This document shows, one piece after another, positions 1-15,599 of a stretch of 64,000 bases of DNA; the first letter of the stretch is position 1; each line of letters begins with the position of its first letter. This DNA comes from a virus. Lineage: Duplodnaviria > Heunggongvirae > Uroviricota > Caudoviricetes. The notes beneath the pieces are model-generated. The model had not been told where the DNA came from and searched no databases. It saw only the letters and a list, made by a program, of their open reading frames with translations. The stretch lies in IMG/VR virus record IMGVR_UViG_3300045988_154997, positions 32,001 to 96,000 of that record. One strand, given 5' to 3'. Both the position numbers and the translations under genes were made by a program.

Positions 1-1929
1 CGTTTTAAAGCTCATTGGCTCAATTCCACCACCTAAATCTTTAAGCAGCTTGCGCATTGGGCCTGATTCAAGCTGGAAAACACCTTGAGTGTACCCAGCA
101 GCAAAACCATCCAGCACCTTGCGATCTTCAAGAGAAATGGCATCAAGATTGATATCCTCACCTGTGTTCTCTTTAATGTAGCGTTTTGCACTATCGAGCA
201 AATCGAGAGTCGCCAGGCCAAGTACGTCCAGCTTAATTAGGCCCATAGCCTCGCAGTAACGCTTGTCAAATGCGATACAACGCGCGTCACCACGTCGTTC
301 AACCGGTGTTCGTTCTGTCAGAGGAACACCTGCTACGATCATCCCTGCCGCATGTCTACCATAGCCACGCATAAGGCTTTGTAACTTGCAGGCTGCATTG
401 AATGCATCAGGATATTTTGTCGCGTATTTGTCGAGGCTTGCCAGTTGTTCGCGCAGCTCTTCCAATGGAAGGCTATCATCCTCGACGTTCTTCAGTTCTT
501 TTGATACCGCCATATCTGCGGACTCCACACCATAAATACGAGCGGTGTCACGTAGTGCAGAGGCCGCGCCCAGGTAGGTGAAGTTCGGAATGCCTGCAAC
601 GTAATCTTCGCCGTAGCGTTCATTCAGATACTCGATCACCTCATGGCGACGTGCCTGGCTGAAGTCCAAGTCCGCATCTGGCAAGTCGAGACGCTCAGGG
701 TTGATGAAACGTTCAAACAGAAGACCGTGACGGATAGGGTCGACGTTGGTTATGCCTATGCACCATGCCACCAAAGAGCCAGCGGAGGAACCACGACCAG
801 GCCCGACAGGAATGCCAGTTTCACGGCTGTGATTCATCAGATCGCGTACCATCAGGAAGTAACCACAAAATCCCAGGCGAGTAAGCGTGTCCATTTCGTA
901 CTTAAGTCGCTCAACATAAACCCTGTTCTCAGAAGCCGGTGGTGTGTAGCCAAACTCTTTTGTGGTAAGACGTTTACGCAGCCCAGCAACGGCCAGTTTC
1001 ATCAGCGTTGCAGGCTCGTCGTCTGCCATCTTTGGCAGTGCTGGTGGCAATTCATGCCAGCGCCATGTGCAGGCATCGATAATGGTATCCTGCGTTGTTG
1101 AGGCCATTGCGGCTGTTACCGGCACATCCATGCGAACGGAGAAGGCTTTCAGCGCCTCAAGGAGATGGCGGCGACCATTGACGGCGTTATCTCGCTGGTG
1201 GGGGATACGCAGACGATGCGGCTGGTCGATTTTGATGTTGTTCGTAACCATGTGCGCAATGTCTTTAATGTCTGCATCGTCGATCGATTCGTAATAAGCG
1301 GGATAGAACGCTACTGGCTCTATTTTCAGTGCGCTGGCGACTTTCATCGCCCGGACGTTAATCTGGTCGTAGAATGGGGTAGGGTGCGGATAAACCACAC
1401 TATAGAAGTTGTTTTTTCCACCCGCTGTAATCAGTGAGCTTATGATTTTTGCAAAATCGTTGCGTTGGTACACGCTACCGATGTCGGCAGTGAGCAGGAT
1501 GATGTTGCCTTTGGCATATGTAGAAACCAACTGTTCGAGCGAGAGACGCGGTACAAAGTAGAACTGTTCTCGTGTGTTGGCCGCCGTCATTAGTTCGCAG
1601 ATGTCTCGATATCCCTGCTCATTTTTAATTAGAGCGGTAAAGGAGTAGTTCCGCCCACGCTCTAATGATTCCATACATCCCATAGACTCTTTAGCAAGTT
1701 TAGCCCGGTGCTCGTATGTGGGATCATCAACAATGTTTAGTTTCACACCACAAATAACCGCCATGTCGTCACCAGCGGCACGTTGTAGTGGAATAACACT
1801 CGCAATATTCATGCTATCTGCCGAAATTACAGCGGTGTAGCCAGCTTCTCTGGCAATCTTCACCGCGTTTTCTGCTTTTAGAGCCGACTCCCCAAGAGAG
1901 AAGTCAGTTCGAACCATCAGAGCCTTCAT
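1..1929 (-). CDS. dnaE: DNA polymerase III alpha subunit (DnaE-like), N-terminal part; gene runs off the window start
   Basis: Minus-strand frame is open from the ATG at 1929 to position 1. Translation starts MKALMVRTDFSLGESALKAENAVKIAREAGY (PHP-domain-like) and contains GFCGYFLMVRDLMNHSRETGIPVGPGRGSSAGSLVAWCIGITNVDPIRHGLLFERFINPER, a classic DnaE core motif. AAAGG RBS lies upstream of 1929. Not in the ORF track because no stop codon falls inside the window. Confidence 0.85.
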   Translation of the reverse strand, partial: MKALMVRTDFSLGESALKAENAVKIAREAGYTAVISADSMNIASVIPLQRAAGDDMAVICGVKLNIVDDPTYEHRAKLAKESMGCMESLERGRNYSFTALIKNEQGYRDICELMTAANTREQFYFVPRLSLEQLVSTYAKGNIILLTADIGSVYQRNDFAKIISSLITAGGKNNFYSVVYPHPTPFYDQINVRAMKVASALKIEPVAFYPAYYESIDDADIKDIAHMVTNNIKIDQPHRLRIPHQRDNAVNGRRHLLEALKAFSVRMDVPVTAAMASTTQDTIIDACTWRWHELPPALPKMADDEPATLMKLAVAGLRKRLTTKEFGYTPPASENRVYVERLKYEMDTLTRLGFCGYFLMVRDLMNHSRETGIPVGPGRGSSAGSLVAWCIGITNVDPIRHGLLFERFINPERLDLPDADLDFSQARRHEVIEYLNERYGEDYVAGIPNFTYLGAASALRDTARIYGVESADMAVSKELKNVEDDSLPLEELREQLASLDKYATKYPDAFNAACKLQSLMRGYGRHAAGMIVAGVPLTERTPVERRGDARCIAFDKRYCEAMGLIKLDVLGLATLDLLDSAKRYIKENTGEDINLDAISLEDRKVLDGFAAGYTQGVFQLESGPMRKLLKDLGGGIEPMSFKT

Positions 1930-2107
1930 GTGTTTTTACCTTTCTGGTTTTTTTGATTTTGTCATTGGGGAAGCCTACGAATTTCCCATACATCGAAATC
2001 GCAACTTCTTTTGCTGATTGGTGACAATCGGGCTTGTCTGGACACACCAGACAAGCCTTGCCAGTTTCAGAAGCAGCGATAAGAGAGCCGAAACATCCTT
2101 TACGCAC
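1904..2107 (-). CDS. small Cys-rich protein (possible zinc ribbon); existence uncertain
   Basis: 67-aa ORF with GTG start 2 nt after the upstream stop; Cys pattern C-x13-C-x2-C-x5-C; 3' end overlaps the dnaE start by 26 nt. Confidence 0.25.
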   Translation of the reverse strand: MRKGCFGSLIAASETGKACLVCPDKPDCHQSAKEVAISMYGKFVGFPNDKIKKTRKVKTHEGSDGSN

Positions 2108-2109
2108 GA

Positions 2110-3345
2110 TTAACCAAATATTTTTTGAACAACTTCACGTGCCGCTTGCGCAGAAGCTGAAGGGAGTTTGTTAATGAAAGAACGCTCAATACCTGTCACA
2201 AAGTCGCCTCGCATCATTCCAATCTTGGCCGACAACAAAAGTTCACGAGGGCCAATCGGCTGACTGATCAGGTGTTCTTCGTATCCATCGCGAACGATAC
2301 CGGCAAACTTAACCATCTTTTCAGCGTATTCATCCACGATGCCAGCATTTATCAACATGTTGATCTCTGCCTCTTTGCTCATGTATTTCACATTCGAAAC
2401 GATGCCAAAACGCGAAAAGTTAGCGGCGTTCTGGATGTTTGTACCCTGGTACAAGCCGGTTTCATCACCAGATCCGTTCGTGTTGCCAGTGCCAATGAAA
2501 GCAAACCGTTCATGCGGAGTAATGCGACGCCATTCTTGAGTCGCCTCTTTGATGACCAACGCTTCACCTTCCAGCACTGGCTGATACACGCCAAGAATCT
2601 GTGGAAACGCAAAGTCGTATTCATCCGCGAGGTAAACCCAGCCATGCTTCATTGCGAGCGCAAGCAAGCCAGGCTCGAAATACGTAGAGCCATCACGCGC
2701 CAGAATTTGTCCCGTAACATGAGCCTCTTCCATTGATGCTGTATGTTGGGCACGGATTAACGGACGATTGAGCAAAGCACATAGTTGTGTAGGCAATGAA
2801 GATTTGCCTGTTCCTGCATGACCCCACAAATAGCCTGGTATGCCAAGTTCAAGCATCATGAAAATGTCTTTGATCAGTTCGAAGTCGCCATATACGTATC
2901 CCTTCTTCACTTCTGGAACGAACTCTGGAAACGGCGTATTGACGTTGACGCTAACCATGAGCGGCGTCCCACGTTTTGTTCCGAGTTCTTTCACCGTTAC
3001 ATTTAGCAGTTCGTGAGCTGCGACCAGATCTGTCTTGTACTCAACTGTGCCTGTATAGCCTGGGCTATTGGTCACGCCAGATGATTTGGCCATTTCGCTT
3101 ATTTGCTCGGCACGTTTAGCTTGAATTGCATCAAGTGCCTTTTTCGATAGCGTTGGCTCATCTGGAAACTGCGTTGTGTACATTTTCAGTACGGTGTCAG
3201 GATCGGCATCTTTTACTGACTCAGGAATGCCCTCGCAATTACCATTGGCTACATGGGACTTAAAATAGTGAAATGATTTTCCGCACCACTTGCAAACAAG
3301 GTAATCAGAAGGATTTTTTTCATTTTGCAGTGCAGTAGTAGTCAT
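2110..3345 (-). CDS. AAA+ ATPase, CobS/MoxR-like
   Basis: Walker A GHAGTGKS and Walker B VYLADEYD in a 411-aa protein, immediately downstream of a VWA-domain partner (CobS/CobT-like pairing). Confidence 0.7.
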   Translation of the reverse strand: MTTTALQNEKNPSDYLVCKWCGKSFHYFKSHVANGNCEGIPESVKDADPDTVLKMYTTQFPDEPTLSKKALDAIQAKRAEQISEMAKSSGVTNSPGYTGTVEYKTDLVAAHELLNVTVKELGTKRGTPLMVSVNVNTPFPEFVPEVKKGYVYGDFELIKDIFMMLELGIPGYLWGHAGTGKSSLPTQLCALLNRPLIRAQHTASMEEAHVTGQILARDGSTYFEPGLLALAMKHGWVYLADEYDFAFPQILGVYQPVLEGEALVIKEATQEWRRITPHERFAFIGTGNTNGSGDETGLYQGTNIQNAANFSRFGIVSNVKYMSKEAEINMLINAGIVDEYAEKMVKFAGIVRDGYEEHLISQPIGPRELLLSAKIGMMRGDFVTGIERSFINKLPSASAQAAREVVQKIFG

Positions 3346-3440
3346 GCGTTTTTCCTTTGTTTTCTAATGAGCTTTCAACTTCTTATATAAATATACCATC
3401 AAATATCGTAAGTGATTACTTATCATTAAGGCTATTCTAA

Positions 3441-5549
3441 TCACTTCAAAATGATACGAGATAGTTCAGTAACTACAGATGAACCAAGACTATCAACGCT
3501 CGTTACCAGGGCATGGTTTGCGTAAAATCTCTCCGGTGCGTCAGTCATGATGCCAATTGCCATCAAATCAATGTCAGTCTGCGTTTCAATTTGCTTCGCA
3601 ACCGAACGCAAATGAGCGTCAAAACCTCTCCCAACAGCCCACGGCGCGCCATCGCTTAGAACAAGCATGATCTTCTTGTCCTCCATGCGACCAGAAAATA
3701 ACGATGCAAGGCTGGCTATGCTTTCACCATCCACGTTATTAAGAAGTGGGAATGTGTAGCCTACGCACCCCATACGTGAGCGAACTTCGCGAGAATTGGC
3801 CTTTTCATTCCAATTTTTGATGATAGGTAGCATTAAAGATTCAAAGCGAGAGAACTCATACTTGATTGCCTTAAGCTCTCCTGCTGCCATATGACTACCA
3901 AATGTTGTGAAGCCGGTGATAATGTTGGGAACATTTATTCGATCAAGCGCATCGGCGATGGTATATGCACTTGCAAGAGCCAGTTTAATCGTTTCGCCGC
4001 TCATTGAACCTGATAAATCAATCACTTGTTGAACACAGGCGTTAACGGCCTTAGATTCTTCTTTTTTACGAAACACGCGATCATCATTCATTGCTAATCT
4101 GTAGATACTAGAACCATGAATGCGCCCCCGACGCTGGCCCGGTATAAACTGAACTCTGTTTCTGCTTGCAATTGCACGCTCCAGGTCTTTTGCCAGCGTC
4201 GACGAAACACCTGACGAAAGATGCTTTTCAATATATTTGTCGAAGAGTTGGTTGCCTTCAGGAACGATGCGATAACGGCTGATTGGATATCCACCTAAAT
4301 CAATATCGGAGAATGTTTTAATAAGCCGTTTGATATGGGCTTCTGCCTGATCAATCGAACCGATGAAGTCGTATGAGCGATTGTATGGCCTGTATTCGCT
4401 TTTCGAGCTTTCTGTTAACTCGCTTTTAATCGTTTCGGATAGTGCATCTTCTGTCATGCCTCCGACTTCATCTTCCATGCTATCAAGCTCCTCTAAAGCC
4501 TCTTCCAGACTCATTTTGGACGGAGTGGGAATGTCTGAAGAGCCGTCTTCTGCCGTTTTTCTTTTTTCGTGATCCGAGGTAGTTGCTTCTGTCGTCGCGC
4601 TATTGGAAGTATCAGAATCTAATACCTCTTTATCATTTTTTGTATCATCGAATATTGTTTCTGATGATTCAGAATTATCTGAATCATCACTATCGTTATT
4701 ATCATGTATGTACTTACCTTGTGACTCATCATCTATAGATATGTGGTTATCTAGCATCTCATGTGTCTTGTGATCTTCATTGTCTTCATTACTTTCTCCA
4801 GAGGAATCCGCTTGGTCAGCGTCTGAAGGATCGGGAGTTTTTCCCGGAGCTGACTCCTTACCTTTGCTTTCACTTTCAGTGTCTTTGAGGATCTTAGCTA
4901 TGGTCGCAGCCACCTTTACACAATCCTCGGTGCAGGACATGTTACGCGCGGCCACATCGATACCATGTTTTTTTAATAATGAAATTGGTTTCTCAATGAC
5001 AGGCCAGTATTCATCCATGAAATCTACGAACGGTGCTTGGCCATCCCAGGCTCTTACAACCGGACAGAGAAAGAAGTTTAGAAAAAGCGCGCGCTGATCT
5101 TTGCCACAATAAGCAATAGCCTCTGAAGCCTTTGGTTTAAAGACTTTTTCGATTATAAGGCGCTGAGTTGCCATCAGATTACGTCTTGTTCCGTTAAAGA
5201 CCTGACCCATTTTTCGCTCGATGAACACGTCTTCTAAGGCATTCCATAGCGACCAGGAAGGAACGCGTCCTTTTTCTCTCATTTTGTTGGACACACGAAT
5301 ATCGGTAAACAAAATGTGAGCAACCTCATGATCGAGAAATCCGCGCACAGCATTCATCAATGCCGGTGTTGCGTTATCCGGGATTGATGGGATGTTTACG
5401 AGAATTGGCTCTCCATCATCGTTATAGCGTACATAAGCGTCGTCCCCTCGTTCTGCAACAGGGATGTTTTTACCTGAAAGGAGAGCGACTACTCGTTTTA
5501 CACTGTCACGGAAGTCCTGAACCTCTTTGATGGAACGTTTTTTAGACAT
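3441..5549 (-). CDS. von Willebrand factor A domain protein, CobT-like partner of the AAA+ ATPase
   Basis: MIDAS-like motif VIDLSGSMSGE near the C-terminal third; long acidic Asp/Ser/Glu-rich low-complexity linker; 702 aa. Confidence 0.65.
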   Translation of the reverse strand: MSKKRSIKEVQDFRDSVKRVVALLSGKNIPVAERGDDAYVRYNDDGEPILVNIPSIPDNATPALMNAVRGFLDHEVAHILFTDIRVSNKMREKGRVPSWSLWNALEDVFIERKMGQVFNGTRRNLMATQRLIIEKVFKPKASEAIAYCGKDQRALFLNFFLCPVVRAWDGQAPFVDFMDEYWPVIEKPISLLKKHGIDVAARNMSCTEDCVKVAATIAKILKDTESESKGKESAPGKTPDPSDADQADSSGESNEDNEDHKTHEMLDNHISIDDESQGKYIHDNNDSDDSDNSESSETIFDDTKNDKEVLDSDTSNSATTEATTSDHEKRKTAEDGSSDIPTPSKMSLEEALEELDSMEDEVGGMTEDALSETIKSELTESSKSEYRPYNRSYDFIGSIDQAEAHIKRLIKTFSDIDLGGYPISRYRIVPEGNQLFDKYIEKHLSSGVSSTLAKDLERAIASRNRVQFIPGQRRGRIHGSSIYRLAMNDDRVFRKKEESKAVNACVQQVIDLSGSMSGETIKLALASAYTIADALDRINVPNIITGFTTFGSHMAAGELKAIKYEFSRFESLMLPIIKNWNEKANSREVRSRMGCVGYTFPLLNNVDGESIASLASLFSGRMEDKKIMLVLSDGAPWAVGRGFDAHLRSVAKQIETQTDIDLMAIGIMTDAPERFYANHALVTSVDSLGSSVVTELSRIILK

Positions 5550-5647
5550 GGCTAATCCTTTGTTATGAAAACAAATTATTTACTAGTGTGTTTAATGTAG
5601 CACTGCGCGAACAGGGAACTAAGCCATTCGCGCAGGGAGAAGAGGGG

Positions 5648-5860
5648 TTAACAGATTCTGACGGCTAAAGACCCGGAGCCGGTATTGAGAAGCGTGAAGC
5701 GTTTGTTGTTAAGTTCGAATATAAAGCCAGTGGTGTCATTCACACCAACCTGAATCTGCTCATTCGGTAGATCGGTAAGGATGTCTGTTACACACTCAAC
5801 AGCTAATTTTTGTACGTGTCCGATCTCAAGAGCGATTAGGCTGGAAATAGTGGTGTTCAT
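5648..5860 (-). CDS. hypothetical protein (70 aa)
   Basis: ORF only; no recognisable motif. Confidence 0.25.
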   Translation of the reverse strand: MNTTISSLIALEIGHVQKLAVECVTDILTDLPNEQIQVGVNDTTGFIFELNNKRFTLLNTGSGSLAVRIC

Positions 5861-6066
5861 TCAATCAATCCATTCTAACTTATACTATGGTAAGGAATAC
5901 TACTAAAATTTGTATCAATACTGAATACATTCATATCATATGCAAGTTACTTTTCTTACCTATTTTGGGCTAATTTTTCTCCGTGCAATGGCCTTTAACC
6001 GGTCTTTTAAGTGCCTATCGAAAAAAATGATAATAGCTTTACAACCCTAACCTTTGATGTAATATC

Positions 6067-6080
6067 GGTAAGCACTTACC
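6067..6080. promoter_or_regulatory. perfect 14-bp palindrome GGTAAGCACTTACC, candidate operator upstream of the HTH gene
   Basis: Read directly; lies about 32 nt upstream of the ATG at 6112; same core as the recurrent intergenic motif. Confidence 0.5.
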
Positions 6081-6111
6081 AGAGAGAATTGAACGCGCAA
6101 AGGTTGTGACC

Positions 6112-6498
6112 ATGTCTGATAACAAGATTGAATTTATAGAAAGTCGCTACGCTGCTTTTATCGCAGGGTTGATTGAATCCTCACCTATGAGCCAGGCCCA
6201 GATAGCCAAAACAATTGGGTATAAAAACGCCAACAACCTTTCTTTAATTAAAAGCGGCAAAATTCCTTTGCCTATCGATAAGGTTCGTCCGCTGGCGCTG
6301 GCACTGGGTATTGAGCCAAGTCGTCTTATGATGATGGTGCTGGAAGAACGCCAACCCGAACTCGCAGCATTTTTATACAAAGAAGGCACTGCTCCTCTTA
6401 ACGAGGACGAAAAACAGGTTCTTGCTGCATATAACGAGCGATTCGGTAAAGAGAAAGGCGCATCACAAAAGGTTGTTGAGGCCATAAAGTCTCTATGA
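6112..6498 (+). CDS. HTH (Cro/CI-type) DNA-binding protein
   Basis: SQAQIAKTIGYKNANNLSLIKSGK resembles an XRE-type helix-turn-helix; ATG at 6112 with AAGG RBS preferred over the track's GTG at 6106. Confidence 0.5.
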   Translation: MSDNKIEFIESRYAAFIAGLIESSPMSQAQIAKTIGYKNANNLSLIKSGKIPLPIDKVRPLALALGIEPSRLMMMVLEERQPELAAFLYKEGTAPLNEDEKQVLAAYNERFGKEKGASQKVVEAIKSL

Positions 6499-7596
6499 AA
6501 AATTTACACGAATAAGCTCTGTTGATAGACGATCTCCCTTAAATTTGTGGTCAATTTCGTCTAAATCCGGTTGCTCTACGATTGATGCGATGTACGTCGA
6601 GAAACTTTCTAAGGCGTCTCGCATCTCGTCCATATAATCGTGCCGGTCGTAGACCCGATCTATCCCCTCAAGACTGTGGTTCATGATTTTACGTGATACC
6701 TCCTGGCTTATGCCTAATGCTGGGAAGTAACTACGCGCAGTACGGCGCAAATCTCGGGGTGTAAATGGCTCAAGCTCCATCAGTTCTGGTCGTTCCAGAA
6801 TACGACGTAATGCCTGGGCTATTGCCACTTTAGACATAGGAAGGTCTTTCCCGATTTTTTTATTCGAAGGCACGAGCCACTGGCTGTCTTTACCATATTC
6901 GAACAACTCTTCAATACATGTGCGCATTAATGAGCTTAAAGGCAGAGAATGCTCACGGGCAGATTTGTTCCTCTTGCCTTGATTCCAAACCCCACGCTTA
7001 AGATTGAACTCACTTTTTTTAGCCCGCAGTACTTCGTCAGGTCGTCTTGCGGATACAAGACATAGCCTGGCCGCCCATTTTGTACCAGCACACACATTGA
7101 AGTAGTCCCATATATTCCAGAACACCCATACCTCTGCGTCGGTCAGCTTCCGCTCGCGAGGTGTGGGCTTTGCGCCACCGGCAACTTTGTTAAGTGACAT
7201 ATCGTTTAACGGTGACACGTCGATCATCCCCTGGAAGGCGCACCAGCTGAGGAACTGCTTCATCAGAGAGAAAACGCGGCGACCCATAACAATTTTGCCA
7301 TCCAGTATTAGTGGGTTGACCAGTTGGTTCACCATGAACCTATTAATATCACTTACTTTTACATCGGCAATGTGCGGCAAAACATGTATCAAAATACAAT
7401 GAACAGCGATCTCTGGCCGACGTCTTGTTATCAGCAGAGATAAGCGAGTGAATAACATGAATGCGTCCGAGAATCTCATGTCATTGCTGACCTGGGAGAT
7501 CATAACGGCCTGCATTTGAGATGCTCTTTCGAGATACTCAATCGCCTCTTTTGAGGTGTTCTCCGCAGCGCGTGCTCTGTCAAAGCTATTTTTCAT
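6493..7596 (-). CDS. int: tyrosine site-specific recombinase (integrase/resolvase family)
   Basis: C-terminal catalytic signature DLRRTARS ... NHSLEGIDRVYDRHDY (R..T.R / H / R..Y pattern of tyrosine recombinases); 367 aa. Confidence 0.75.
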   Translation of the reverse strand: MKNSFDRARAAENTSKEAIEYLERASQMQAVMISQVSNDMRFSDAFMLFTRLSLLITRRRPEIAVHCILIHVLPHIADVKVSDINRFMVNQLVNPLILDGKIVMGRRVFSLMKQFLSWCAFQGMIDVSPLNDMSLNKVAGGAKPTPRERKLTDAEVWVFWNIWDYFNVCAGTKWAARLCLVSARRPDEVLRAKKSEFNLKRGVWNQGKRNKSAREHSLPLSSLMRTCIEELFEYGKDSQWLVPSNKKIGKDLPMSKVAIAQALRRILERPELMELEPFTPRDLRRTARSYFPALGISQEVSRKIMNHSLEGIDRVYDRHDYMDEMRDALESFSTYIASIVEQPDLDEIDHKFKGDRLSTELIRVNFS

Positions 7597-7694
7597 ATGA
7601 CAATCACCGAGTTACGCCGATGCACTGTATAAGTAAACAGTATATTAGGCATAGATTCTTATAGGATCAAGAGTAAAAGTAACTCATTTTCAGT

Positions 7695-7727
7695 AATGAT
7701 TCCATACATAGTAGGTATGGAATCATT
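7695..7727. repeat. lox/dif-like recombination core candidate: 13-bp inverted repeats around a 7-bp spacer
   Basis: AATGATTCCATAC-atagtag-GTATGGAATCATT, perfect arms, about 100 bp from the recombinase start codon. Confidence 0.5.
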
Positions 7728-7804
7728 GGGGGGCGATTTTTTTGAATCTATCTTTTCGAACGGAGGGGTTGGCTTCACTTTTATCTTCATCACCTAAAAG
7801 GTAA

Positions 7805-8794
7805 TTGATTTACTTGAAAATGGCTGGTTTTATAGTATTGTCATGCGATCGCTGCAACAGGATAAGAAAAATGATAAAAGAGACACCGGAAGTCAACACG
7901 CTATCTGAGTTATTAGGGGCTACGCCTCCCAAACCTCAGCTAGTAGTGACGACTAAAGGTATTGATTTAGGTCTGGATATCTCCCTCGGAGATTGGAATA
8001 ACTCTTCATTATTATCACGACCTTCAGCTTTGTTAGCAATTGAGCATGGGGAAAATTTATTTGAACTCATGGATAAAGAGTTAGGTCTTGTTGGTATTAA
8101 TGAAGAAGGAGTGATCAAGTCAAACATCATTATCGAACTAGATCCCCATAAAACAACTATGAGAATATTAGGTAAAATTGCGGAAGCACTCATTGTTGAA
8201 GAATGTGAAAAAAACGCGAAACAAAATGAAAACTGGGCATTATTAGCAAAGAGATATACCCCTTTCACAGATAGTTTGTCTAATTATAAAGCTGTTGGGA
8301 CTGGACTCAACTATACGAAAATTAACTATCCTACTAAATATCAACCTAATGATACTCAACGGGACATTGTGTGGATAGACAAACGAGACCCACTTTCTCA
8401 ATTACTTATTTCTGCTCCAACGTCGAATTCAGGTATACAGGCTGGAATTCAAGTGAAGGTCAGTGCAAATGGTCTTAACTATCTATCACCAATGGATTTT
8501 TCTAGCAGAAGATATGAGGTCCCTATTGTTTACTTTGATTTAAATAATGATTTTTTTGAAATTCAGATGAAGATAGTGAACTCAGGAATTGATTCGGTTT
8601 ATGGAATGGATTATCACCGTGGTAGAAACATTTCTCCTGAAATACATGAAAAACTATGTGCATATTATAACCTTATATACTCCATTATCATTGGTGATAT
8701 GAAATTAGAGGCTCTGTTACTAAATGAAGAGGCACTGAAAGGGTATGTGACTGAGATTAAAGATAGACAAGGTAAAAGAATAATCGTGACGTGA
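7805..8794 (+). CDS. hypothetical protein (329 aa), AT-rich cargo gene
   Basis: Long ORF in a roughly 35-38% GC segment; no recognisable motif; true start may be an internal Met. Confidence 0.5.
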   Translation: MIYLKMAGFIVLSCDRCNRIRKMIKETPEVNTLSELLGATPPKPQLVVTTKGIDLGLDISLGDWNNSSLLSRPSALLAIEHGENLFELMDKELGLVGINEEGVIKSNIIIELDPHKTTMRILGKIAEALIVEECEKNAKQNENWALLAKRYTPFTDSLSNYKAVGTGLNYTKINYPTKYQPNDTQRDIVWIDKRDPLSQLLISAPTSNSGIQAGIQVKVSANGLNYLSPMDFSSRRYEVPIVYFDLNNDFFEIQMKIVNSGIDSVYGMDYHRGRNISPEIHEKLCAYYNLIYSIIIGDMKLEALLLNEEALKGYVTEIKDRQGKRIIVT

Positions 8795-8986
8795 AAACCT
8801 AAACTGTAAAGGCAACAAAAGGTGAAATAATAACTCATTAAAAGCACATTGTGTGAAATTTTAATCTGATAATTCATATATCGGAAGGGATTTTAGATAT
8901 TTTTAATATTTATAACTGTCCTTTTCATAGATATAGTTGATTTGAGCGCACACTTTCATGTAAAAAGCCGCCTAAGCGGCTCTTAA

Positions 8987-9232
8987 TTATAATGTACTCA
9001 CCAGAGCGGCGAATTCCGTATAGCCACCGATAGATTCGCCATTTACGAACACCTGCGGTATGGTCTCCACCGGCTTGCCAACCAGGGCGCTCAATTTCTC
9101 TTTGTCTATCCCAGCAGACACAATATCGATGTATTCGTAATCGCCAAAACCGTGACCGTGAAGCTGCTTCGCCAGCTCGACCGCACGTTTGCAGTATGAG
9201 CAGTTATCTCGTCCATAGATAGTGATCGTCAT
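8987..9232 (-). CDS. glutaredoxin-like protein
   Basis: 81 aa; N-terminal MTITIYGRDNCSYCKRA with a CxxC redox motif (CSYC) and overall glutaredoxin/NrdH-like layout. Confidence 0.75.
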   Translation of the reverse strand: MTITIYGRDNCSYCKRAVELAKQLHGHGFGDYEYIDIVSAGIDKEKLSALVGKPVETIPQVFVNGESIGGYTEFAALVSTL

Positions 9233-9372
9233 TGCTTTGCCTCGTTATGCGCTTCGCTGGGGAACGTGTAGCGGTTAGTGAAAGAGCTGAGGTGGTAGTG
9301 CTCGTGAATGTATGGATTTGACTTCTGCACCTGACGAGATGCGCGACGCGCATGTTTACATTTATTTCCCAT
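9229..9372 (-). CDS. small hypothetical protein (47 aa), translationally coupled to the glutaredoxin gene
   Basis: Internal ATG at 9372 preceded by GAAAGGA RBS; stop overlaps the glutaredoxin start (ATGA). The longer track ORF would start inside the conserved intergenic motif. Confidence 0.3.
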   Translation of the reverse strand: MGNKCKHARRASRQVQKSNPYIHEHYHLSSFTNRYTFPSEAHNEAKQ

Positions 9373-9428
9373 ATTGAGTCCTTTCAAGTGAGTATCCGAA
9401 AGAACTATACAGTTAACGTGCGTAAAAA

Positions 9429-9448
9429 GTAAGTGCTTACCTATCATT
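9429..9448. promoter_or_regulatory. recurrent intergenic motif GTAAGTGCTTACCTATCATT (palindromic core GTAAG-TG-CTTAC)
   Basis: Exact 13-mer CTTACCTATCATT also at 15558-15570 and 27927-27939; sits in the divergent region between the glutaredoxin operon and the 273-aa gene. Confidence 0.5.
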
Positions 9449-9521
9449 TATTGATAGAAGAATAGCCGCCTGTCGTGTGATACTATTTACAGAACTAAAC
9501 TGGCTTTCCACAAGGTGTAAA

Positions 9522-10343
9522 ATGACTATCCTTGAAAATCCTGATGCGAATGTTGAATCTGTTTATAGTCTTCATCCAACCACGTTGTTTCATTTTACAA
9601 AAAACGAAGATGCTTTCTATAGCATATTGGCTGAGAAATATTTTAAACCATTTCTTGCTCGCGAGGAAATAAGAGGAGTCGGGGGACGCAGGAGGTTTGC
9701 AGTACCAATGGTATCGTTTTGTGACATAAAACTATCACAAATCAGAGATCATAGCGGAAAATATGGAGAATTCGGTCTTGGGCTAACTAAGTCTTGGGCG
9801 GAAAAGAAAGGTCTACACCCAGTTCTATATATGAATAAGAGTAGTGAAATATTTTCTAAATACAATGCCAGAATTCGACTTATTAAAAATAAGTTGGTGC
9901 CGCTTTGGAAGGCTAGAGGAAATTTAGATACCAAAAACAGAATAGAGTTTGAGAAATTGAAAGCAGAATATTCTGATCTATATAATTTACTGCGTTATAT
10001 GAAAAATTACAGAGGCAAGCTAGAGCGAAAAGATAATAAAACAATAGAGAATTATATATATGCAGACGAGAAAGAGTGGCGTTATGTGCCAGCTCCTTTT
10101 ATTGGTGATTTATGGCCTAGTCTGAGTTTGGAGCGTGTTATCACTTCTGATGACAAAGCAAAAATTAGCTCAAAATTTTCAAAGTTTGGCATTGATTTTG
10201 AGTTCAATGATATAAAATATATACTTATACCTAAAGAACAACATATCCAAAAGCTAATTAACTTTCTCTCAGGTTTAGATGGATTTGAATCTTCAATTAT
10301 TAGCAAAATTCTGACCATGGATAAAGTAAAGCAAGATTTTTAA
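9522..10343 (+). CDS. DUF2971/Abi-like protein (tentative family assignment)
   Basis: ATG at 9522 with AAGGTG RBS. Motifs LFHFTK...FYSIL, FAVPMVSFCD...HSGKYGEFGLGL and C-terminal EKEWRYV echo the LYKY / MWSHY..HKGFCIGF / E.EWR pattern of the DUF2971-like protein at 23116-23835. AT-rich. Confidence 0.45.
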   Translation: MTILENPDANVESVYSLHPTTLFHFTKNEDAFYSILAEKYFKPFLAREEIRGVGGRRRFAVPMVSFCDIKLSQIRDHSGKYGEFGLGLTKSWAEKKGLHPVLYMNKSSEIFSKYNARIRLIKNKLVPLWKARGNLDTKNRIEFEKLKAEYSDLYNLLRYMKNYRGKLERKDNKTIENYIYADEKEWRYVPAPFIGDLWPSLSLERVITSDDKAKISSKFSKFGIDFEFNDIKYILIPKEQHIQKLINFLSGLDGFESSIISKILTMDKVKQDF

Positions 10344-10369
10344 TTTTTGGTTTAACGGGAGCCTAATTA

Positions 10370-11581
10370 GTGTCAATATTTTTAAGCGAAAAGGAAATGC
10401 AAAATTGGATAATTGACAAATTATCTGATCAAGATGGATTATATAATTCAATCATCAATATTGATAAATTAAATGAATTTAATCCGAAAAGACCCGAAGA
10501 GAAAAAAATTAAGGAGAGTTATCAGTTTTGTTTAAAGAACATAACATTGTTACATTTAATGACAGATGATGAGAATATCTCAGCAACAAAATCTGAGATA
10601 TTAAGACCTGATGTCGTTGCTTATTCAACAGAGAATGAATCCTTAGTTCTTATTGAGTTAAAAAATTTTTCAACACCAACAAGGGAAGCTGGAACTGAGC
10701 TAGTGGCATATGCTGCGGAACTAAAAAGTTACTTGTCATACTTGTCTGATGGAGATATTACCAATGTACTTATATCACCTGACTGGCCACCTTTGGTTAG
10801 ACACTTTATTTTTAATATGATCGTGTGGCAGAAGAAAAACTTTCTATGTTTAGAACCTTGCTATGATTTACAAGGTAACGTATCACTTACTCCTTTAGAT
10901 ATTAATAAATTAGTTATTGCGGAAGAAGCACTCAAGTTCTCATTTCGTCATCTTGGCGGGTTTCATATATGTTTGTATGATGATGAAATGTATAATCAAC
11001 CGACTTCCACTTCTCGTTTACATTCGAAATTGAATGTTATTAAAGCCAGCATGGCAAAAATGTCCTCAGACGGTGAAAAGACTAATAGCCATGGGTTTGC
11101 TATTTTATGTAGAAATTTGAACGAGAGAACTTTAGCACCATATACGATTACTCTAGTTAATGTTTCTGCGTTTTCTTCCATAGAGCGATACTTTCATTCG
11201 CCACAAATATCCAATGCTTCTCAACTCCCTAGAATAGGACAAAAAATTTATGACATTTACACTCATTACCAACCATCAGGTTTTGGGGCATCAATGTCGA
11301 AAATTTACAATTCTGGGAGGGCATATTTAGAAAAAATTAATTGCAAGCCGCGGATCGAGGTTATAGACACCTGGGATGTATTGCAAGTACATACACATGC
11401 GCCTTATATGGAAATGGTTCATATTGAAACGTGGGGAGTTTTTAAAGAAAAATTGATTGAAGGTCTAAATGAATGTTATGAGGATGAATATTACACACCT
11501 GATTTTAACGATGTAGATTTTTGCATGGTGTGTATTGAATCCTTAATTGACCAGAATTATGAATTTATAAAACTTTTTTGA
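10370..11581 (+). CDS. PD-(D/E)xK nuclease-like protein with unknown C-terminal domain
   Basis: N-terminal ILRPDVVAYSTENESLVLIELKNFS fits a D ... E-x-K restriction-endonuclease-fold signature; GTG start at 10370 with GGGAG RBS; 403 aa; about 33% GC. Confidence 0.5.
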   Translation: MSIFLSEKEMQNWIIDKLSDQDGLYNSIINIDKLNEFNPKRPEEKKIKESYQFCLKNITLLHLMTDDENISATKSEILRPDVVAYSTENESLVLIELKNFSTPTREAGTELVAYAAELKSYLSYLSDGDITNVLISPDWPPLVRHFIFNMIVWQKKNFLCLEPCYDLQGNVSLTPLDINKLVIAEEALKFSFRHLGGFHICLYDDEMYNQPTSTSRLHSKLNVIKASMAKMSSDGEKTNSHGFAILCRNLNERTLAPYTITLVNVSAFSSIERYFHSPQISNASQLPRIGQKIYDIYTHYQPSGFGASMSKIYNSGRAYLEKINCKPRIEVIDTWDVLQVHTHAPYMEMVHIETWGVFKEKLIEGLNECYEDEYYTPDFNDVDFCMVCIESLIDQNYEFIKLF

Positions 11582-11584
11582 AGA

Positions 11585-11604
11585 AAAGGGGCCGAAGCCC
11601 CTTT
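11585..11604. terminator. stem-loop AAAGGGGC-cgaa-GCCCCTTT, probable intrinsic terminator, likely bidirectional
   Basis: Directly after the stop at 11579-11581; on the minus strand it is followed by TTTTCTTC, so it also ends the tRNA transcript. Confidence 0.55.
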
Positions 11605-11680
11605 GAATATTGCGCTGAAAAAAAGTGTTGCTAGGATGTTAGCAAGCTATGGTTAAGAACGTCTGCCGTAATTGTCAATC

Positions 11681-11758
11681 ACAGCGTTGAGCGGTCTGGT
11701 TTATGTTAGCGGAGTCTTAATCGAGTTGATTAAAAGGCCAAACCGCTCAACGCTGTGT
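11681..11758. repeat. 16-bp perfect inverted repeat (CACAGCGTTGAGCGGT / ACCGCTCAACGCTGTG) forming a long hairpin abutting the tRNA-Ser 3' end
   Basis: Read directly; arms separated by 46 nt. Confidence 0.6.
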
Positions 11759-11759
11759 C

Positions 11760-11846
11760 TGGCGGAGAGTAATGGAATCGAACCATCATCGTTTGCACAA
11801 TGGGACGATTTTCAAGACCGCTTGAGCACCATGCTCCCTACTCTCC
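11760..11846 (-). tRNA. tRNA-Ser (anticodon TGA), type II with long variable arm, CCA encoded
   Basis: Minus-strand sequence GGAGAGT...CGGTCTTGAAAATCG...GGTTCGATTCC...ACTCTCCGCCA: 7-bp acceptor stem, anticodon loop CTTGAAA, T-loop TTCGATT. Confidence 0.7.
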
Positions 11847-12070
11847 GGCCGTTGTGGTGGCCGGTACTGAATCTCCGGCATACGGTGCAGCCAATTAGGA
11901 CTACGGACGATCACCGCTCGCGAAAGGGAAGATTTGCGGCCGCATTTCCCTAACATCCAAGAAAGCTATCGCATCAGTCTGCGAATCCACCACAACGGTA
12001 AGATCACTACCTTTCGACCAGTCATTGTGCACATGAACGACGATTAACCGTAATGATCTTATCGTTGTAT

Positions 12071-12147
12071 TGGTGCCGGTTAACGGACTCGAACCGCTGA
12101 CATCCTGCTTACAAGGCAGGCGCTCTACCAACTGAGCTAAACCGGCA
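12071..12147 (-). tRNA. tRNA-Thr (anticodon TGT), CCA encoded
   Basis: TGCCGGT-TT-AGCTCAGTTGGTAGAGC-G-CCTGC-CTTGTAA-GCAGG-ATGTC-AGCGG-TTCGAGT-CCGTT-AACCGGCA-CCA; canonical cloverleaf. Confidence 0.85.
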
Positions 12148-12150
12148 ATT

Positions 12151-12237
12151 TGGTGGGGAGTGATGGAGTCGAACCACCCGAGTCGCAATGACAGTAGATT
12201 TACAGTCTGTCCCGCTACCTCTACGGACTAACTCCCC
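12151..12237 (-). tRNA. tRNA-Tyr (anticodon GTA), type II, CCA encoded; two non-canonical pairs in the anticodon stem
   Basis: Anticodon arm and variable arm AGACTGTAAATCT.C.GTCAT closely resemble E. coli tRNA-Tyr as recalled from memory; acceptor GGGGAGT/ACTCCCC; T-loop TTCGACT. Confidence 0.65.
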
Positions 12238-12242
12238 TAAAT

Positions 12243-12317
12243 TGGCGATGGTGGGTGGATTCGAACCACCGACCAGTTGGTTAACAGCCAACTGCTCTAC
12301 CGCTGAGCTACACCATC
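12243..12317 (-). tRNA. tRNA-Asn (anticodon GTT), CCA encoded
   Basis: GATGGTG-TA-GCTC-AGCGGTA-GAGC-A-GTTGG-CTGTTAA-CCAAC-TGGTC-GGTGG-TTCGAAT-CCACC-CACCATC-G-CCA. Confidence 0.85.
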
Positions 12318-12581
12318 AATTCAGCACTGCCAGTATTTATTACTCAACAGTGCCAATCGCGGCGGTGTTAGTTTCTGCCAGGAAACACACCGCTACTGGC
12401 ACTTTCCGTTAGTGCCAGACGTTTTCGACTTCGCTCAATAGAAGGCAAAATCTTTAAGTAGATGATGTTTCTGAGGACAGCACCTACTTTGTAATTTATA
12501 CAATGTGATGTATGGAATCATTTGTTGTGAAAACAGGCACTAATGGCAACAGTGGTTAAACCTATACAACAATCCTGTCTT

Positions 12582-12703
12582 CACAACGTTGAGGCCACTA
12601 CTCCGATTGAATGTTTGCCCAACATGTTACATATCAACGCTCGCCGGTATCTCTGTGAATAGAACCTTAGAATTGATAAAAATGTAATGGCCTCAACGTT
12701 GTG
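12582..12703. repeat. 15-bp perfect inverted repeat (CACAACGTTGAGGCC / GGCCTCAACGTTGTG) separated by about 92 nt in an ORF-free region
   Basis: Read directly; similar in sequence to the arm of the 11681-11758 repeat (CACAgCGTTGAG). Confidence 0.6.
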
Positions 12704-12781
12704 TGCTGGCTAACCATACCAGCCGGGCTACGTCGCCGCTTTTTAACCCAGTATAAACGACATAATTGAACAAAATGACGT

Positions 12782-12857
12782 AACAGGATGGGCGGTCATT
12801 GGCTAAGAATCCGGGAGTCGTATATGAGTTGAAAATATACTGACCGCCCATTCTGTT
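12782..12857. repeat. 17-bp inverted repeat (AACAGGATGGGCGGTCA / TGACCGCCCATTCTGTT, one mismatch), spacer about 42 nt
   Basis: Read directly; followed by a further 9-bp hairpin GGAGGGAAC/GTTCCCTCC at 12867-12891. Confidence 0.55.
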
Positions 12858-13094
12858 ACTTCATCGGAGGGAACTCTCATGTTCCCTCCTGCGTTCTGCA
12901 ATCACACTCGCTCAGTGTGTCCCATTTCGGTAACGAGGCTGGAAACTGACCTCGCTGGTGTTTGGCTTATTAGGCTACTGCCAGATAGACTTCTTCGTTT
13001 GCACTTGTATTTAAGTTCAAACAGTCGCGTCTCAACGAAAACAAAGTCATCTTATACATAAAAGATAGGTAAGTAAATACTTATTATTGTATTT

Positions 13095-13385
13095 TTATTC
13101 GGTTGTGACTTTTTTGATCAAGGCCACTCTACGACTAGGTGTTCTTGTGATGGTGGCAGTGAATTGTTTCGCTTGGATAGTAATGGTTTCGTTCTCCTTA
13201 AGTTGCCCGTAGCGAGTTTCCACCAGGGTGCCAAGACGCCACAGACCATCATCGATACGTTTATGACTAGCAAATTTAATCAGCAACAGTTTTACGACTA
13301 ACTGACCTACGTAAAAGGCGAATGCGACTCCGGCCGCTAAGAAATAGGTGACCAACCACCATTCCCAAGAAGTTAACTTGCTCAT
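13095..13385 (-). CDS. small membrane protein (96 aa)
   Basis: N-terminal hydrophobic helix WEWWLVTYFLAAGVAFAFYVGQLVV; ATGA overlap with the upstream small ORF. Confidence 0.45.
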   Translation of the reverse strand: MSKLTSWEWWLVTYFLAAGVAFAFYVGQLVVKLLLIKFASHKRIDDGLWRLGTLVETRYGQLKENETITIQAKQFTATITRTPSRRVALIKKVTTE

Positions 13386-13534
13386 TTTTTCACCTTTGTT
13401 TCATGAACTACTCGATACACGCGCTTTCCGATGCACAGTGTTTTGGTTTTAAGTTCCTGCTTAATCAAATCATGACAGATGCCGAAGCCGATAAGGAAGC
13501 CAGCCATAAAAGCCAATGAGATGTATGGAATCAT
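13382..13534 (-). CDS. small membrane protein (50 aa; below the ORF-track size cutoff)
   Basis: ATG at 13534 with AGGAGCC RBS; translation MIPYISLAFMAGFLIGFGICHDLIK...; overlaps neighbours at both ends (ATGA). Confidence 0.35.
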   Translation of the reverse strand: MIPYISLAFMAGFLIGFGICHDLIKQELKTKTLCIGKRVYRVVHETKVKK

Positions 13535-13746
13535 TTAAAGGCTCCTGATTCTACTAATTGCTGTAGCAATAATTTCCCTTTATCAGTTAACTGGTAGTTG
13601 GCCGAGCGCCACGTTTCAGAAACGTTTGCAACCAACCCTAAACGCTCTAACTTAGCTCGCGTTTTAGGCTTCCAGTACTCAGGGAACTCCGGCCACTTAC
13701 TTATTTCATGAAGCGTTTCTTTCTCCCGTTTACTTAATACGATCAT
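13531..13746 (-). CDS. hypothetical protein (71 aa)
   Basis: ORF only; coupled to the ligase stop. Confidence 0.4.
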   Translation of the reverse strand: MIVLSKREKETLHEISKWPEFPEYWKPKTRAKLERLGLVANVSETWRSANYQLTDKGKLLLQQLVESGAFK

Positions 13747-15065
13747 TCTTTATCTCCGATTCGATCTTCGGTATCGCGTAAGCAACGCGGCCATTTCAGT
13801 CGTGGGTGGCGTAAGCTGCCATCAGGTGTTTTCTCGTGACAATGAACCTCGACAATACGACCACGGTACTTCTCTTTGTTGTTCCAGATCTCGTCCAGAT
13901 ATTTATGCTTAATGCCGCTCGCACGAACGATGACGCCGTTTTCAAGACGAATAACAATTTTCCCAAGCGTGTTGGCAAAACCAGAGTCCGGGTCGCCCGG
14001 CTCAAAATCGATAATTTCACCATCTTCTGAATCTTCGTCTTTTAACTTCCACCAGCTGCGGGTACGTTTAAACTCGTAAACAGAGTTCGGATCTTTGCCC
14101 ATCTCCCCTTCTTCGTTATCGTCCAGGCGTTTCATGAAGCGTTCGATGAAGTCTTCGTGGCTATGGATGATGTAGAACGGATGCAGGTGAATGTCTTGTG
14201 CGTAGCCTTCACTGCGATCGTTTTTGAACAACGCCACGAGCATAGCCAGGCGCTCTTTCAGCTTCATACCTGTCTTTGCATACTCTTTGGATTTAGCCTG
14301 TGCTCGCCATTCCGGTAGGAAGAAGTCGAAAACATGATAAATAGCGCCAATTGCCTGCACGTTCTTTTTGCGCAATGCAGATACGGACTGGTTAAATGAA
14401 CCGGCTGTGCCTTCACCATCGAAGAAGATGTGTTTGTGGCCTGAAAGTTTGCCTAATTCGAGCATGGCTGGCTTTAGGTGATCGAGAGACGTGATTGGAT
14501 TACCAGTACGAGAAAGGAAGTTAACCTCTTCTTCGTCAACAATAACCTCGCAAATTACTCGCAAACCATCGAGCTTAAGGCTGCCAATCATCGGCCATTT
14601 TGCTTTAGGGTTTGGCTTGAAGGGGTATTTGTCGCCTTTTTCTTTATACGGTGACGCCAGCTGCACCTCGAATTTCGGAATGGGATTTTCAAAAACCTTG
14701 TTGCATAGGCTAATCCCAACGCCAGCTTTCGGATCTTTTAAGAGGAAACGACGGAAGACGTCCTGCCCATCGGCGCACATTGACGCCACGATAGACTCAA
14801 CAGCAGCTATTGCTGCGTTCCCCGTCAGCTCGCGAGAGGCCAGCTTATTCAGTACATCAATGGCTTTTTCGTCACTTGGGACGGACTCACTAAGCGGCTC
14901 TGCCACTTTGTATTTCTTTACCCCAAAACGGATGAAAGGGTTGAGCATCAATGAAACCATGCTTTGTTCAAAGTCATCCATGTTGGCCAATGCCTCTTTT
15001 TTTGCATTGGTTCCCATAGCTTTCATTTCGTCCAGCTTATGCTTAAGTGCGATCAACTTTTTCAT
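13743..15065 (-). CDS. ATP-dependent DNA ligase
   Basis: Adenylation motif I KxDGxR present as SLKLDGLRVI; 440 aa. Confidence 0.8.
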   Translation of the reverse strand: MKKLIALKHKLDEMKAMGTNAKKEALANMDDFEQSMVSLMLNPFIRFGVKKYKVAEPLSESVPSDEKAIDVLNKLASRELTGNAAIAAVESIVASMCADGQDVFRRFLLKDPKAGVGISLCNKVFENPIPKFEVQLASPYKEKGDKYPFKPNPKAKWPMIGSLKLDGLRVICEVIVDEEEVNFLSRTGNPITSLDHLKPAMLELGKLSGHKHIFFDGEGTAGSFNQSVSALRKKNVQAIGAIYHVFDFFLPEWRAQAKSKEYAKTGMKLKERLAMLVALFKNDRSEGYAQDIHLHPFYIIHSHEDFIERFMKRLDDNEEGEMGKDPNSVYEFKRTRSWWKLKDEDSEDGEIIDFEPGDPDSGFANTLGKIVIRLENGVIVRASGIKHKYLDEIWNNKEKYRGRIVEVHCHEKTPDGSLRHPRLKWPRCLRDTEDRIGDKE

Positions 15066-15532
15066 TGTTGTTTTGCCTCCATATGTTGATCGATTTGCTC
15101 ATGTGTTTCTTTTGTTGTTTCTTCAATCAACGCCGCATACACGTCAGTGATCGCTGTTTGTGATGTGGCGCTCTTCTTAACCATGCTATTAATCGTTACA
15201 CTGTCACGTTTTCGTTTTATAGTTCTGGCTTGTTTATTCCGTTCTTCAACCTCCTTAATGAGTGCGGTCATATCTTCGTAATACAGAGATTCTCCTTTAC
15301 GAATCTCTTCAACCATCATTTTTAACGCCTTGCATTTGCCTGCTTTAATAGCGGTTGCGCACGACTGGAAAGACGTTCGAGGAAGACGGTTTTCTTTGAA
15401 GGCAAGAATGGTGTGCTGGCAAACGGAGTAGCTGCAATATGCCGACTCACCGTTTATCTTTACTTCCTCACAACGAAGTGAATAACCGTTATTTCCTGAA
15501 ATAGAAGGGATTTTTGACAAATCAGCTTTCAC
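15062..15532 (-). CDS. hypothetical protein (156 aa), GTG start
   Basis: ORF only; preceded by the CTTACCTATCATT motif and a 15-codon upstream ORF beginning MIGK. Confidence 0.45.
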   Translation of the reverse strand: MKADLSKIPSISGNNGYSLRCEEVKINGESAYCSYSVCQHTILAFKENRLPRTSFQSCATAIKAGKCKALKMMVEEIRKGESLYYEDMTALIKEVEERNKQARTIKRKRDSVTINSMVKKSATSQTAITDVYAALIEETTKETHEQIDQHMEAKQQ

Positions 15533-15599
15533 AATTACCGCCAGAAATAATCTTGTGCTTACCTATCATTATTTGCGTAAAAAACGACACACAGAGAGC

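Follow-up and report, generated by a model that had tools for sequence, protein, structure and literature searches.

The Cre/loxP system of the phage-plasmid P1 consists of a recombinase gene beside a simple site, in which two 13-bp inverted arms flank a short asymmetric spacer of 8 bp, and the role described for Cre is multimer resolution and genome circularization. Multimer resolution is also the function of ResD at rfsF of the F plasmid and of the XerCD recombinases at cer and dif. Here we describe a locus of similar design in a 64-kb stretch of viral DNA (positions 32,001 to 96,000 of the IMG/VR record IMGVR_UViG_3300045988_154997, hereafter the window). It comprises a gene for a tyrosine recombinase and, upstream of it, a 33-bp palindrome of 13-7-13 geometry, AATGATTCCATAC-ATAGTAG-GTATGGAATCATT (Table 1). 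Comparison with relatives makes it probable that the palindrome is the cognate site of the recombinase, most likely serving the resolution of plasmid dimers or concatemers. The role proposed is thus that of Cre and, as in P1, the host element is a phage living as a plasmid. The two systems differ in the length of the spacer (7 bp here) and have no detectable sequence relationship, and the present locus has in addition a LexA box on the recombinase promoter and lone half-sites kilobases away from the palindrome. From ResD/rfsF and XerCD it differs in protein lineage and site sequence; moreover, Xer recombination uses 11-6-11 sites, two recombinases and accessory proteins, none of which was found here, the arms being identical and the recombinase gene single and adjacent.

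The initial annotation had pointed out a perfect 13-7-13 palindrome about 100 bp from the recombinase start codon. The palindrome is real, and 98 nt separate its left end from the start codon. It is the sole perfect inverted repeat in the window with arms of at least 13 nt and a spacer of 3-12 nt, and no such repeat occurred in 30 dinucleotide-type shuffles of the window. In the 111-kb Escherichia coli plasmid pLH09-a-C (NZ_CP100547.1), which is 100% identical to this region, the 13-mer of the arms is present in five exact copies in total, with no further exact or one-mismatch copy, while the expectation by simple arithmetic for a given 13-mer in 222 kb (both strands) is about 0.003. A text search of the literature for the 13-mer returned no papers, and the motif is not known to match host-factor sites such as those of Fur, IHF, DnaA, Ter and dif. 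A sigma-E-type promoter at the palindrome was considered and rejected, as by manual count the gap between GGAAT in the arm and the downstream TCTGA was too long.

The palindrome was recovered by exact-pattern scans from 78 viral and 7 genome contigs. In every one of these contigs where the sequence reaches far enough, the palindrome was adjoined by the recombinase gene. Among approximately 100 relatives (from E. coli, Klebsiella, Salmonella [pHCM2], Yersinia pestis [pMT1], Enterobacter, Serratia and Chimaeribacter) the arms were constant except for an occasional change of the outermost base, and this constancy held down to 57% identity of the recombinase. The spacer was found in at least 11 forms, which followed lineage (e.g. 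ATAGTAG, TTAATAG, CTTACAA, CTACCAA and TATATAA). More distant homologues, with 44-50% identity, came from Xenorhabdus and Providencia phage-plasmids, a 106-kb contig of Erwinia (plasmid-sized, without phage genes), a 507-kb replicon of Pantoea vagans, a 722-kb replicon of Rahnella and a 34-kb Rep3 plasmid of Photorhabdus. In all of these the gene is preceded, at a distance of 20-110 nt, by a palindrome of 12/13-7-12/13 geometry. In the distant clade the arms, (A/G)TGACTCCAGAC, carry two substitutions relative to ATGATTCCATAC, at arm positions 6 and 11, mirrored in both arms, and the Photorhabdus plasmid has an intermediate arm, TGATTCCAGAC. Among viral contigs with the distant-clade palindrome the recombinase gene was adjacent in 7 of 8, the exception being contig L111 (IMGVR_UViG_2791355157_000004), with TGTGACTCCAGAC-CTCGTGA-GTCTGGAGTCACA at 5269-5301.

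The arms track the clade of the recombinase and not the family of the host: Rahnella, Serratia and Yersinia all belong to the Yersiniaceae, and Rahnella differs from the other two. The Erwinia, Pantoea and Rahnella loci, which retain the palindrome, have no gene for a helix-turn-helix (HTH) protein of the kind that accompanies the recombinase in phage-plasmids, and no phage genes at all. The recombinase gene is the palindrome's sole constant companion, and this is the main argument that the palindrome is very probably the recombination site of the adjacent recombinase. Two 13-bp arms and a 7-bp spacer are the footprint expected of paired monomers of this lineage of tyrosine recombinases. The likeness to core sites of such enzymes suggested by the initial annotation thus extends from the inverted arms of about 13 bp and the asymmetric spacer in the range of 6-8 bp to adjacency to the gene and co-variation with it.

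The same comparisons bear on the possibility that the palindrome and the half-sites constitute a transcriptional operator, bound by the HTH protein or by another phage regulator of divergent promoters and early genes, and that the link to recombination is incidental. The palindrome does separate divergent transcription units, the motif is found again at three further loci of the replication-gene region, much like the dispersed operators of phage P1, and the HTH gene, whose counterpart in phage Cyrano is annotated as 'putative repressor', is a conserved neighbour in the phage-plasmids. However, the palindrome stays beside the recombinase gene in replicons having neither the HTH gene nor any phage genes, its distance from the start codon varies between 20 and 110 nt, and in the window it is located upstream of the -35 element rather than over the promoter. 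With 20 bp between the centres of its 13-bp arms it would be an unusual target for a dimer of a 130-amino-acid HTH protein, for which a more compact operator is expected, and a different palindrome found upstream of many operons, TAAGTA-N4-TACTTA (see below), is the better operator candidate. An operator function of the 33-bp sequence appears quite improbable, and the HTH protein is probably not what binds it.

The constancy of the arms is also hard to reconcile with an RNA hairpin serving as a terminator or stability element between the recombinase gene and the genes on the other side of the palindrome. A transcript would have a 13-bp stem and a 7-nt loop, and in many relatives a T-run begins 9 nt further on. 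The gap sets this T-run apart from the stem, however, and the terminator scan did not pick up the palindrome. In the SSU5 clade (the phage-plasmid group to which the window belongs, see below) the arms are invariant, without the free compensatory drift of a stem, and at three conserved loci the 13-mer stands by itself, with no partner arm. A role as an RNA hairpin is extremely improbable.

The recombinase matched the Pfam family PF00589 (Phage_integrase) with an E value of 2.9e-10 and 40.6 bits (cutoff 27.1); the score with PF22022 (22.8 bits) was below the cutoff of 27. In an alignment of 16 family and outgroup sequences R185, K211, R284 and Y316 did not vary, and H307 was almost invariant. 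Where the P4-type outgroups have the first His of the HxxR motif, the recombinase family has Arg (R281, in the sequence PRDLRR). Outside the family the closest proteins, with 26-34% identity, are P4-type integrases, which carry the arm-binding domain PF13356 (DUF4102 type). No match to PF13356 was detected in the recombinase, and in the alignment the N-terminal domain of about 75 residues present in the outgroup sequences P0114-P0120 was missing. What remains is a core-binding and a catalytic domain, the arm-binding domain being replaced by a helical N-terminal extension (short helices in the model). The AlphaFold2 model (mean predicted local distance difference test score, pLDDT, 83.8) had as its closest folds lambda Int (residues 75-356), Tn1549 Int and Xer, with a match probability of 1.00 for lambda Int, Tn1549 Int and XerH. 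Cre chains ranked 39th and lower, with E values above 0.01 compared with 3e-7 for lambda Int, and structures of the integron integrase IntI ranked 27th and lower, ahead of Cre. A search of PDB sequences with the recombinase gave no hits.

The P4-type nearest relatives, the approximately 75 missing residues and the lambda Int-like fold indicate that, as far as sequence and model can tell, the recombinase is a lambda/P4-lineage enzyme cut down to its core-binding and catalytic domains, with loss of the arm-binding domain. It shares with integrases of the P4/lambda type these two domains and the catalytic residues, and a 7-bp crossover region is typical of the lambda/P4 lineage. It differs from them in the absence of PF13356, in the Arg at the first position of HxxR, in the perfect symmetry of its core arms and in that no chromosomal integration was seen. 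Of the Cre/lox analogy drawn in the initial annotation, the mode of working was supported, whereas membership in the Cre family was not borne out: the system is predicted to work like Cre/lox but stands outside the Cre family, as an uncharacterized and widespread branch of the lambda/P4 integrases.

Since the gene is annotated as 'integrase' and P4-type integrases are the nearest outgroup by sequence, it was important to consider the possibility that the palindrome is an attP site, by which the recombinase integrates the element into the bacterial chromosome in some hosts. P4/lambda-type integrases insert into a chromosomal attB, often a tRNA gene. Of the 255 matches in 5,426 complete E. coli genomes, however, all were on plasmids and none was chromosomal; among the hosts, this chromosomal survey was exhaustive for E. 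coli only. When recombinase copies were sought on very long contigs, only plasmid-sized contigs of about 93-106 kb were returned. In all seven genome contigs with the palindrome the recombinase gene is its neighbour, and hence an intact copy of an empty target was not found. The enzyme has no arm-binding domain, there are no arm-type sites nearby, and the perfectly symmetric arms are unlike typical attP cores. We regard integration at this site as very improbable. In agreement with this, SSU5-type elements have been described as exclusively extrachromosomal, and a tyrosine recombinase, whose site was left undefined, is among the persistent genes of the SSU5 supergroup (PMC9600943, PMC7969092, PMC12977533).

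The surroundings of the gene in other replicons point to plasmid maintenance. In the 34-kb Photorhabdus plasmid the recombinase gene lies between a ParA cassette and rep, a typical maintenance cluster, and in the Providencia phage-plasmid it adjoins a ParA cassette. The missing arm-binding domain, the symmetry of the arms, the plasmid-only distribution and the Photorhabdus cluster favour resolution or circularization over integration, and the palindrome most likely keeps the plasmid monomeric rather than integrating it. The suggestion of the initial annotation that this is a non-integrative, Cre/lox-type module for multimer resolution in an element with a ParA partition cassette is therefore supported by comparison, that is by linkage, co-variation, domain loss and the lack of chromosomal copies, with resolution itself as the probable function. 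The cassette is indeed present in the window, as a small ParA-type ATPase gene with a gene for a 119-amino-acid partner (23880-24907). In the proposed mechanism each 13-bp arm would be occupied by one recombinase monomer, and strand exchange would span the asymmetric 7-bp spacer, as it does in Cre/loxP and other simple-site systems. Two sites in direct repeat would recombine to yield monomers, whether the substrate is a dimeric plasmid or phage DNA that is concatemeric or terminally redundant. This role is the most likely one because the element lives as a plasmid. Binding, the positions of cleavage, the resolution function and SOS control in vivo are what we infer from the sequences compared.

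A candidate sigma-70 promoter of the recombinase gene was read from the sequence between the gene and the palindrome, with a LexA (SOS) box directly downstream of its -10 element (Table 1). The promoter agrees with the consensus at 8 of 12 positions, which is below the threshold of the promoter scan and explains why the scan did not list it. The pattern CTGT-N8-ACAG has three matches in the 111-kb plasmid, two of them with an A/T-rich core. The second A/T-rich box (84369-84384 of NZ_CP100547.1, outside the window) is located directly upstream of a gene for a 129-amino-acid peptidase of the S24 family. Both the promoter and the LexA box of the recombinase gene are kept in pMT1, in pHCM2 and in the Klebsiella and Serratia relatives. 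The two boxes, at the recombinase promoter and at the S24 peptidase gene, suggest that the element has a small SOS regulon. LexA would repress transcription of the recombinase gene, and the SOS response would raise it. Phage Cyrano is inducible by ciprofloxacin (PMC9928086).

In addition to the two arms of the palindrome, the 13-mer occurs at three places in the window. Two had been listed in the initial annotation, as 12511-12523 and 13524-13536; these copies exist on the plus strand, but the coordinates were one base off, the correct ones being 12510-12522 and 13523-13535. The third, at 1664-1676 on the minus strand within dnaE, had been missed. At each place the arm is extended by GAT, and the resulting half-sites (A, C and D in Table 1) share a partly conserved adjacent 7-mer, AT-N-N-GAT. 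A degenerate second arm was sought beside each half-site and none was found, GAT being the only conserved neighbour. In the SSU5 clade the half-sites persist until recombinase identity has fallen to about 59%, and their order and orientation are fixed in all of the approximately 50 relatives that hold one: A is to the left of the palindrome on the minus strand, C and D are to the right on the plus strand, and each points toward the palindrome as the corresponding arm does. In the relatives A is 6.0-6.3 kb to the left of the palindrome and C 1.2-6.3 kb to the right, and wherever C and D are both present, 992-1039 bp (about 1.0 kb) separate them. Within 10 kb of the palindrome, the distant clade lacks half-sites.

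Half-site A encodes the peptide CMESL, for which all relatives use the same codons, although the codons on either side differ; in the DnaE proteins of Xenorhabdus and Providencia this segment has a different, non-conserved sequence. At A it is therefore the DNA motif and not the DnaE protein that is under selection. The explanation that the half-sites encode a shared peptide was rejected, as ATG-ATT-CCA-TAC opens a real open reading frame (ORF) only at D and elsewhere runs into a stop within a few codons. A promoter scan around C and D found no promoter. Since the half-sites contain the same 13-mer as the arms of the palindrome, they probably bind a monomer of the recombinase. They resemble the sites of the Rci/sfx shufflon of plasmid R64, which consist of a single conserved arm next to a 7-bp spacer. 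However, distances of 1-12 kb separate the half-sites, two of the three overlap coding sequence, and no inversion between opposed half-sites, as would be expected of a shufflon, was seen among the approximately 50 half-site-bearing relatives. Deletions between half-sites were likewise absent from this set, in which rare events of either kind would escape detection.

To the right of the palindrome begins a variable cargo slot. BLAST alignments of the window to many relatives, including the 77%-identical pMT1, end exactly at position 7727, the last base of the right arm. Among 35 loci with a 200-bp left flank of at least 95% identity to the window there were six unrelated right flanks, starting with the first base after the palindrome, and 413 locus pairs had at least 95% identity to the left and less than 70% to the right of it. 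A stretch of about 25 bp next to the right arm (7728-7752) is weakly kept in most of these otherwise unrelated cargo types. Elsewhere the slot contains a YafO toxin gene, a phs operon with insertion sequence (IS) elements or, in Cyrano, CYRAN_43, a gene whose expression in lysogens is 723 times background. In pMT1 (contig L004, 10236-15977, corresponding to the window from 7728 onward) the caf1 operon for the F1 capsule starts with the first base after the right arm and takes the place of all that pHCM2 has as cargo, half-site C included; the two plasmids become homologous again 42 bp beyond the position that C would have. Half-site C was examined as the boundary of the cargo and rejected, because the right edge of the replaced cargo is off C, with homology returning before or after it; nor did any cargo boundary fall at the other half-sites. 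In the window the slot includes, at 9477-11581, a gene of the AbiGi family (288 amino acids, Pfam E value 5e-25) followed by a 403-amino-acid ORF with only a sub-threshold match, to a restriction-enzyme N-terminal domain; the two may be an abortive-infection pair.

The boundary fits occasional site-specific exchange between co-resident elements, and raises the possibility that the system is a platform for cargo exchange, loosely similar to an integron. Recombination between the sites of co-resident phage-plasmids with the same spacer, together with a second crossover, would swap the cargo, and the SOS response would raise the rate. The conserved LexA box on the recombinase promoter, the drop in identity at the palindrome in the 413 locus pairs, the six cargo types found behind a single recombinase and spacer type, and the nature of the cargo (caf1, toxin-antitoxin and Abi genes, the highly expressed Cyrano gene) are all in its favour; it is also compatible with a resolution system, of which it could be a by-product or second function. 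On the other hand, each element has one full site, site-bounded cassettes were not seen, the right boundaries of the replaced blocks do not match half-site C, IS elements travel with some of the cargo, and the hotspot reported for resistance genes in SSU5-like elements is further to the right, between phoH and the ligase gene (PMC9600943). We consider cargo exchange as the principal role unlikely. Integrons likewise have a LexA-controlled tyrosine recombinase (here the control is predicted) beside a slot for variable cargo, but no attC-type sites, cassette array or repeated cassette boundaries are present here, the recombinase is not close to IntI, and the site is a perfect duplex palindrome. 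Relative to simple-site systems, the unusual additions at this locus are the predicted SOS control, the conserved distant half-sites and the position at the edge of the cargo slot.

Several observations weigh against dimer resolution as the whole explanation. Resolution leaves unexplained the three conserved half-sites kilobases away, and the distant clade does without them. A housekeeping resolvase has no obvious need for SOS induction. The predicted catalysis might be affected by R281 in place of the first His of HxxR. The palindrome in L111 has no recombinase homologue within approximately 5 kb on either side, where there are only short overlapping ORFs, and may be a solo site or a remnant. 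The sharp boundary at the palindrome could in part result from selection keeping the site beside a region that tolerates insertions, and the weak conservation of about 25 bp continues past the palindrome. A more speculative combination, to which we give a small chance of being correct, is that the recombinase, the site and the three half-sites form an SOS-triggered device with tasks beyond dimer resolution. Recombination between same-spacer sites on co-resident phage-plasmids would swap the cargo slot, where the F1 capsule operon of Y. pestis is located, and recombinase bound to the half-sites (in dnaE, near the tRNA genes and on a start codon within the ligase operon) would control the expression of replication genes or loop the 12-kb region at the onset of lytic growth.

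The recombinase is a persistent gene of one of the largest groups of phage-plasmids, including pMT1, pHCM2 and common plasmids of Klebsiella and E. coli, and no description of its function or site was found in the literature searched. Because its arms are invariant and its spacers vary in nature, the 33-bp site lends itself to direct tests of function, and the system could provide a compact recombination tool independent of Cre/lox. The site marks the edge of a slot in which virulence, defence and toxin genes are exchanged, and the conserved half-sites, one of them imposed on the coding sequence of DnaE, point to an additional activity of a simple-site recombinase.

Table 1. Positions of the features of the recombinase locus and its surroundings in the 64-kb window
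Feature	Position	Strand	Remarks
Half-site A, GATGTATGGAATCATT	1664..1679	-	inside dnaE, ~255 nt from its start; left-arm orientation
TAAGTA-N4-TACTTA	3409-3424, 13070-13085, 33305-33320, 46701-46716, 52196-52211, 58990-59005		
TAAGTA-N4-TACTTA, variants	9429-9448, 15546-15570, 16428-16447		
HTH protein gene	6106..6498	+	convergent with the recombinase gene, overlaps its 3' end; conserved neighbour
Tyrosine recombinase gene, 367 amino acids	6493..7596	-	Pfam PF00589; PHROG 1 'integrase'
LexA (SOS) box	7625..7640		CTGT-N8-ACAG, CTGTATAAGTAAACAG; directly downstream of candidate -10
Candidate sigma-70 promoter of recombinase gene	7642..7670	-	TTGATC, 17 nt, TAATAT; read from sequence
Proposed recombination site	7695..7727		left arm 7695-7707; asymmetric spacer ATAGTAG 7708-7714; right arm 7715-7727
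Loosely conserved ~25-bp stretch right of palindrome	7728..7752		T-run, then AAATCTGAG-like motif at +15 to +25; from right-flank comparison
Variable cargo slot	7753..12506		palindrome to half-site C; 329-amino-acid ORF, glutaredoxin gene, AbiGi-family gene and 403-amino-acid ORF, four tRNA genes
Half-site C, GATGTATGGAATCATT	12507..12522	+	intergenic, ~190 nt from tRNA-Asn gene; right-arm orientation
Half-site D, GATGTATGGAATCATT	13520..13535	+	spans stop codon of 71-amino-acid ORF and start codon of minus-strand 50-amino-acid ORF

The first 20 kb of the window match SSU5-type phage-plasmids, and the window belongs to a phage-plasmid of the SSU5/pHCM2/pMT1 type. Besides the identity with pLH09-a-C, the region has 96-99% identity to phage Cyrano and pLF82; Klebsiella phage-plasmids, Salmonella Typhi pHCM2 and Y. 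pestis pMT1 are more distant, with 73-78% DNA identity. The palindrome and the recombinase gene are located amid replication genes (dnaE, an AAA ATPase with a CobT-like protein, ligase, primase and helicase). Cumulative GC skew of the whole plasmid, calculated to see whether the site is opposite the replication origin, was uninformative, as it fell monotonically and tracked gene orientation.

Four tRNA genes (Ser-TGA, Thr-TGT, Tyr-GTA and Asn-GTT) are clustered at 11760-12317 on the minus strand; Cyrano has three at the same position, without Tyr. An Rfam scan of positions 1-16000 of the window found nothing beyond these four tRNAs. The cluster is flanked, at 11680-11757 and 12582-12703, by two pairs of 20-nt inverted repeats with 95% complementarity and a common core, CAACGTTGAGG / CCTCAACGTTG, which have no match in Rfam and could be processing or terminator structures. 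The second palindrome, TAAGTA-N4-TACTTA (often gTAAGT....ACTTAT), is unrelated to the 33-bp site and dispersed over the whole plasmid. Its nine matches in 111 kb are mostly in gaps upstream of minus-strand operons, and it resembles a dispersed operator or a promoter-associated binding site for a phage regulator.

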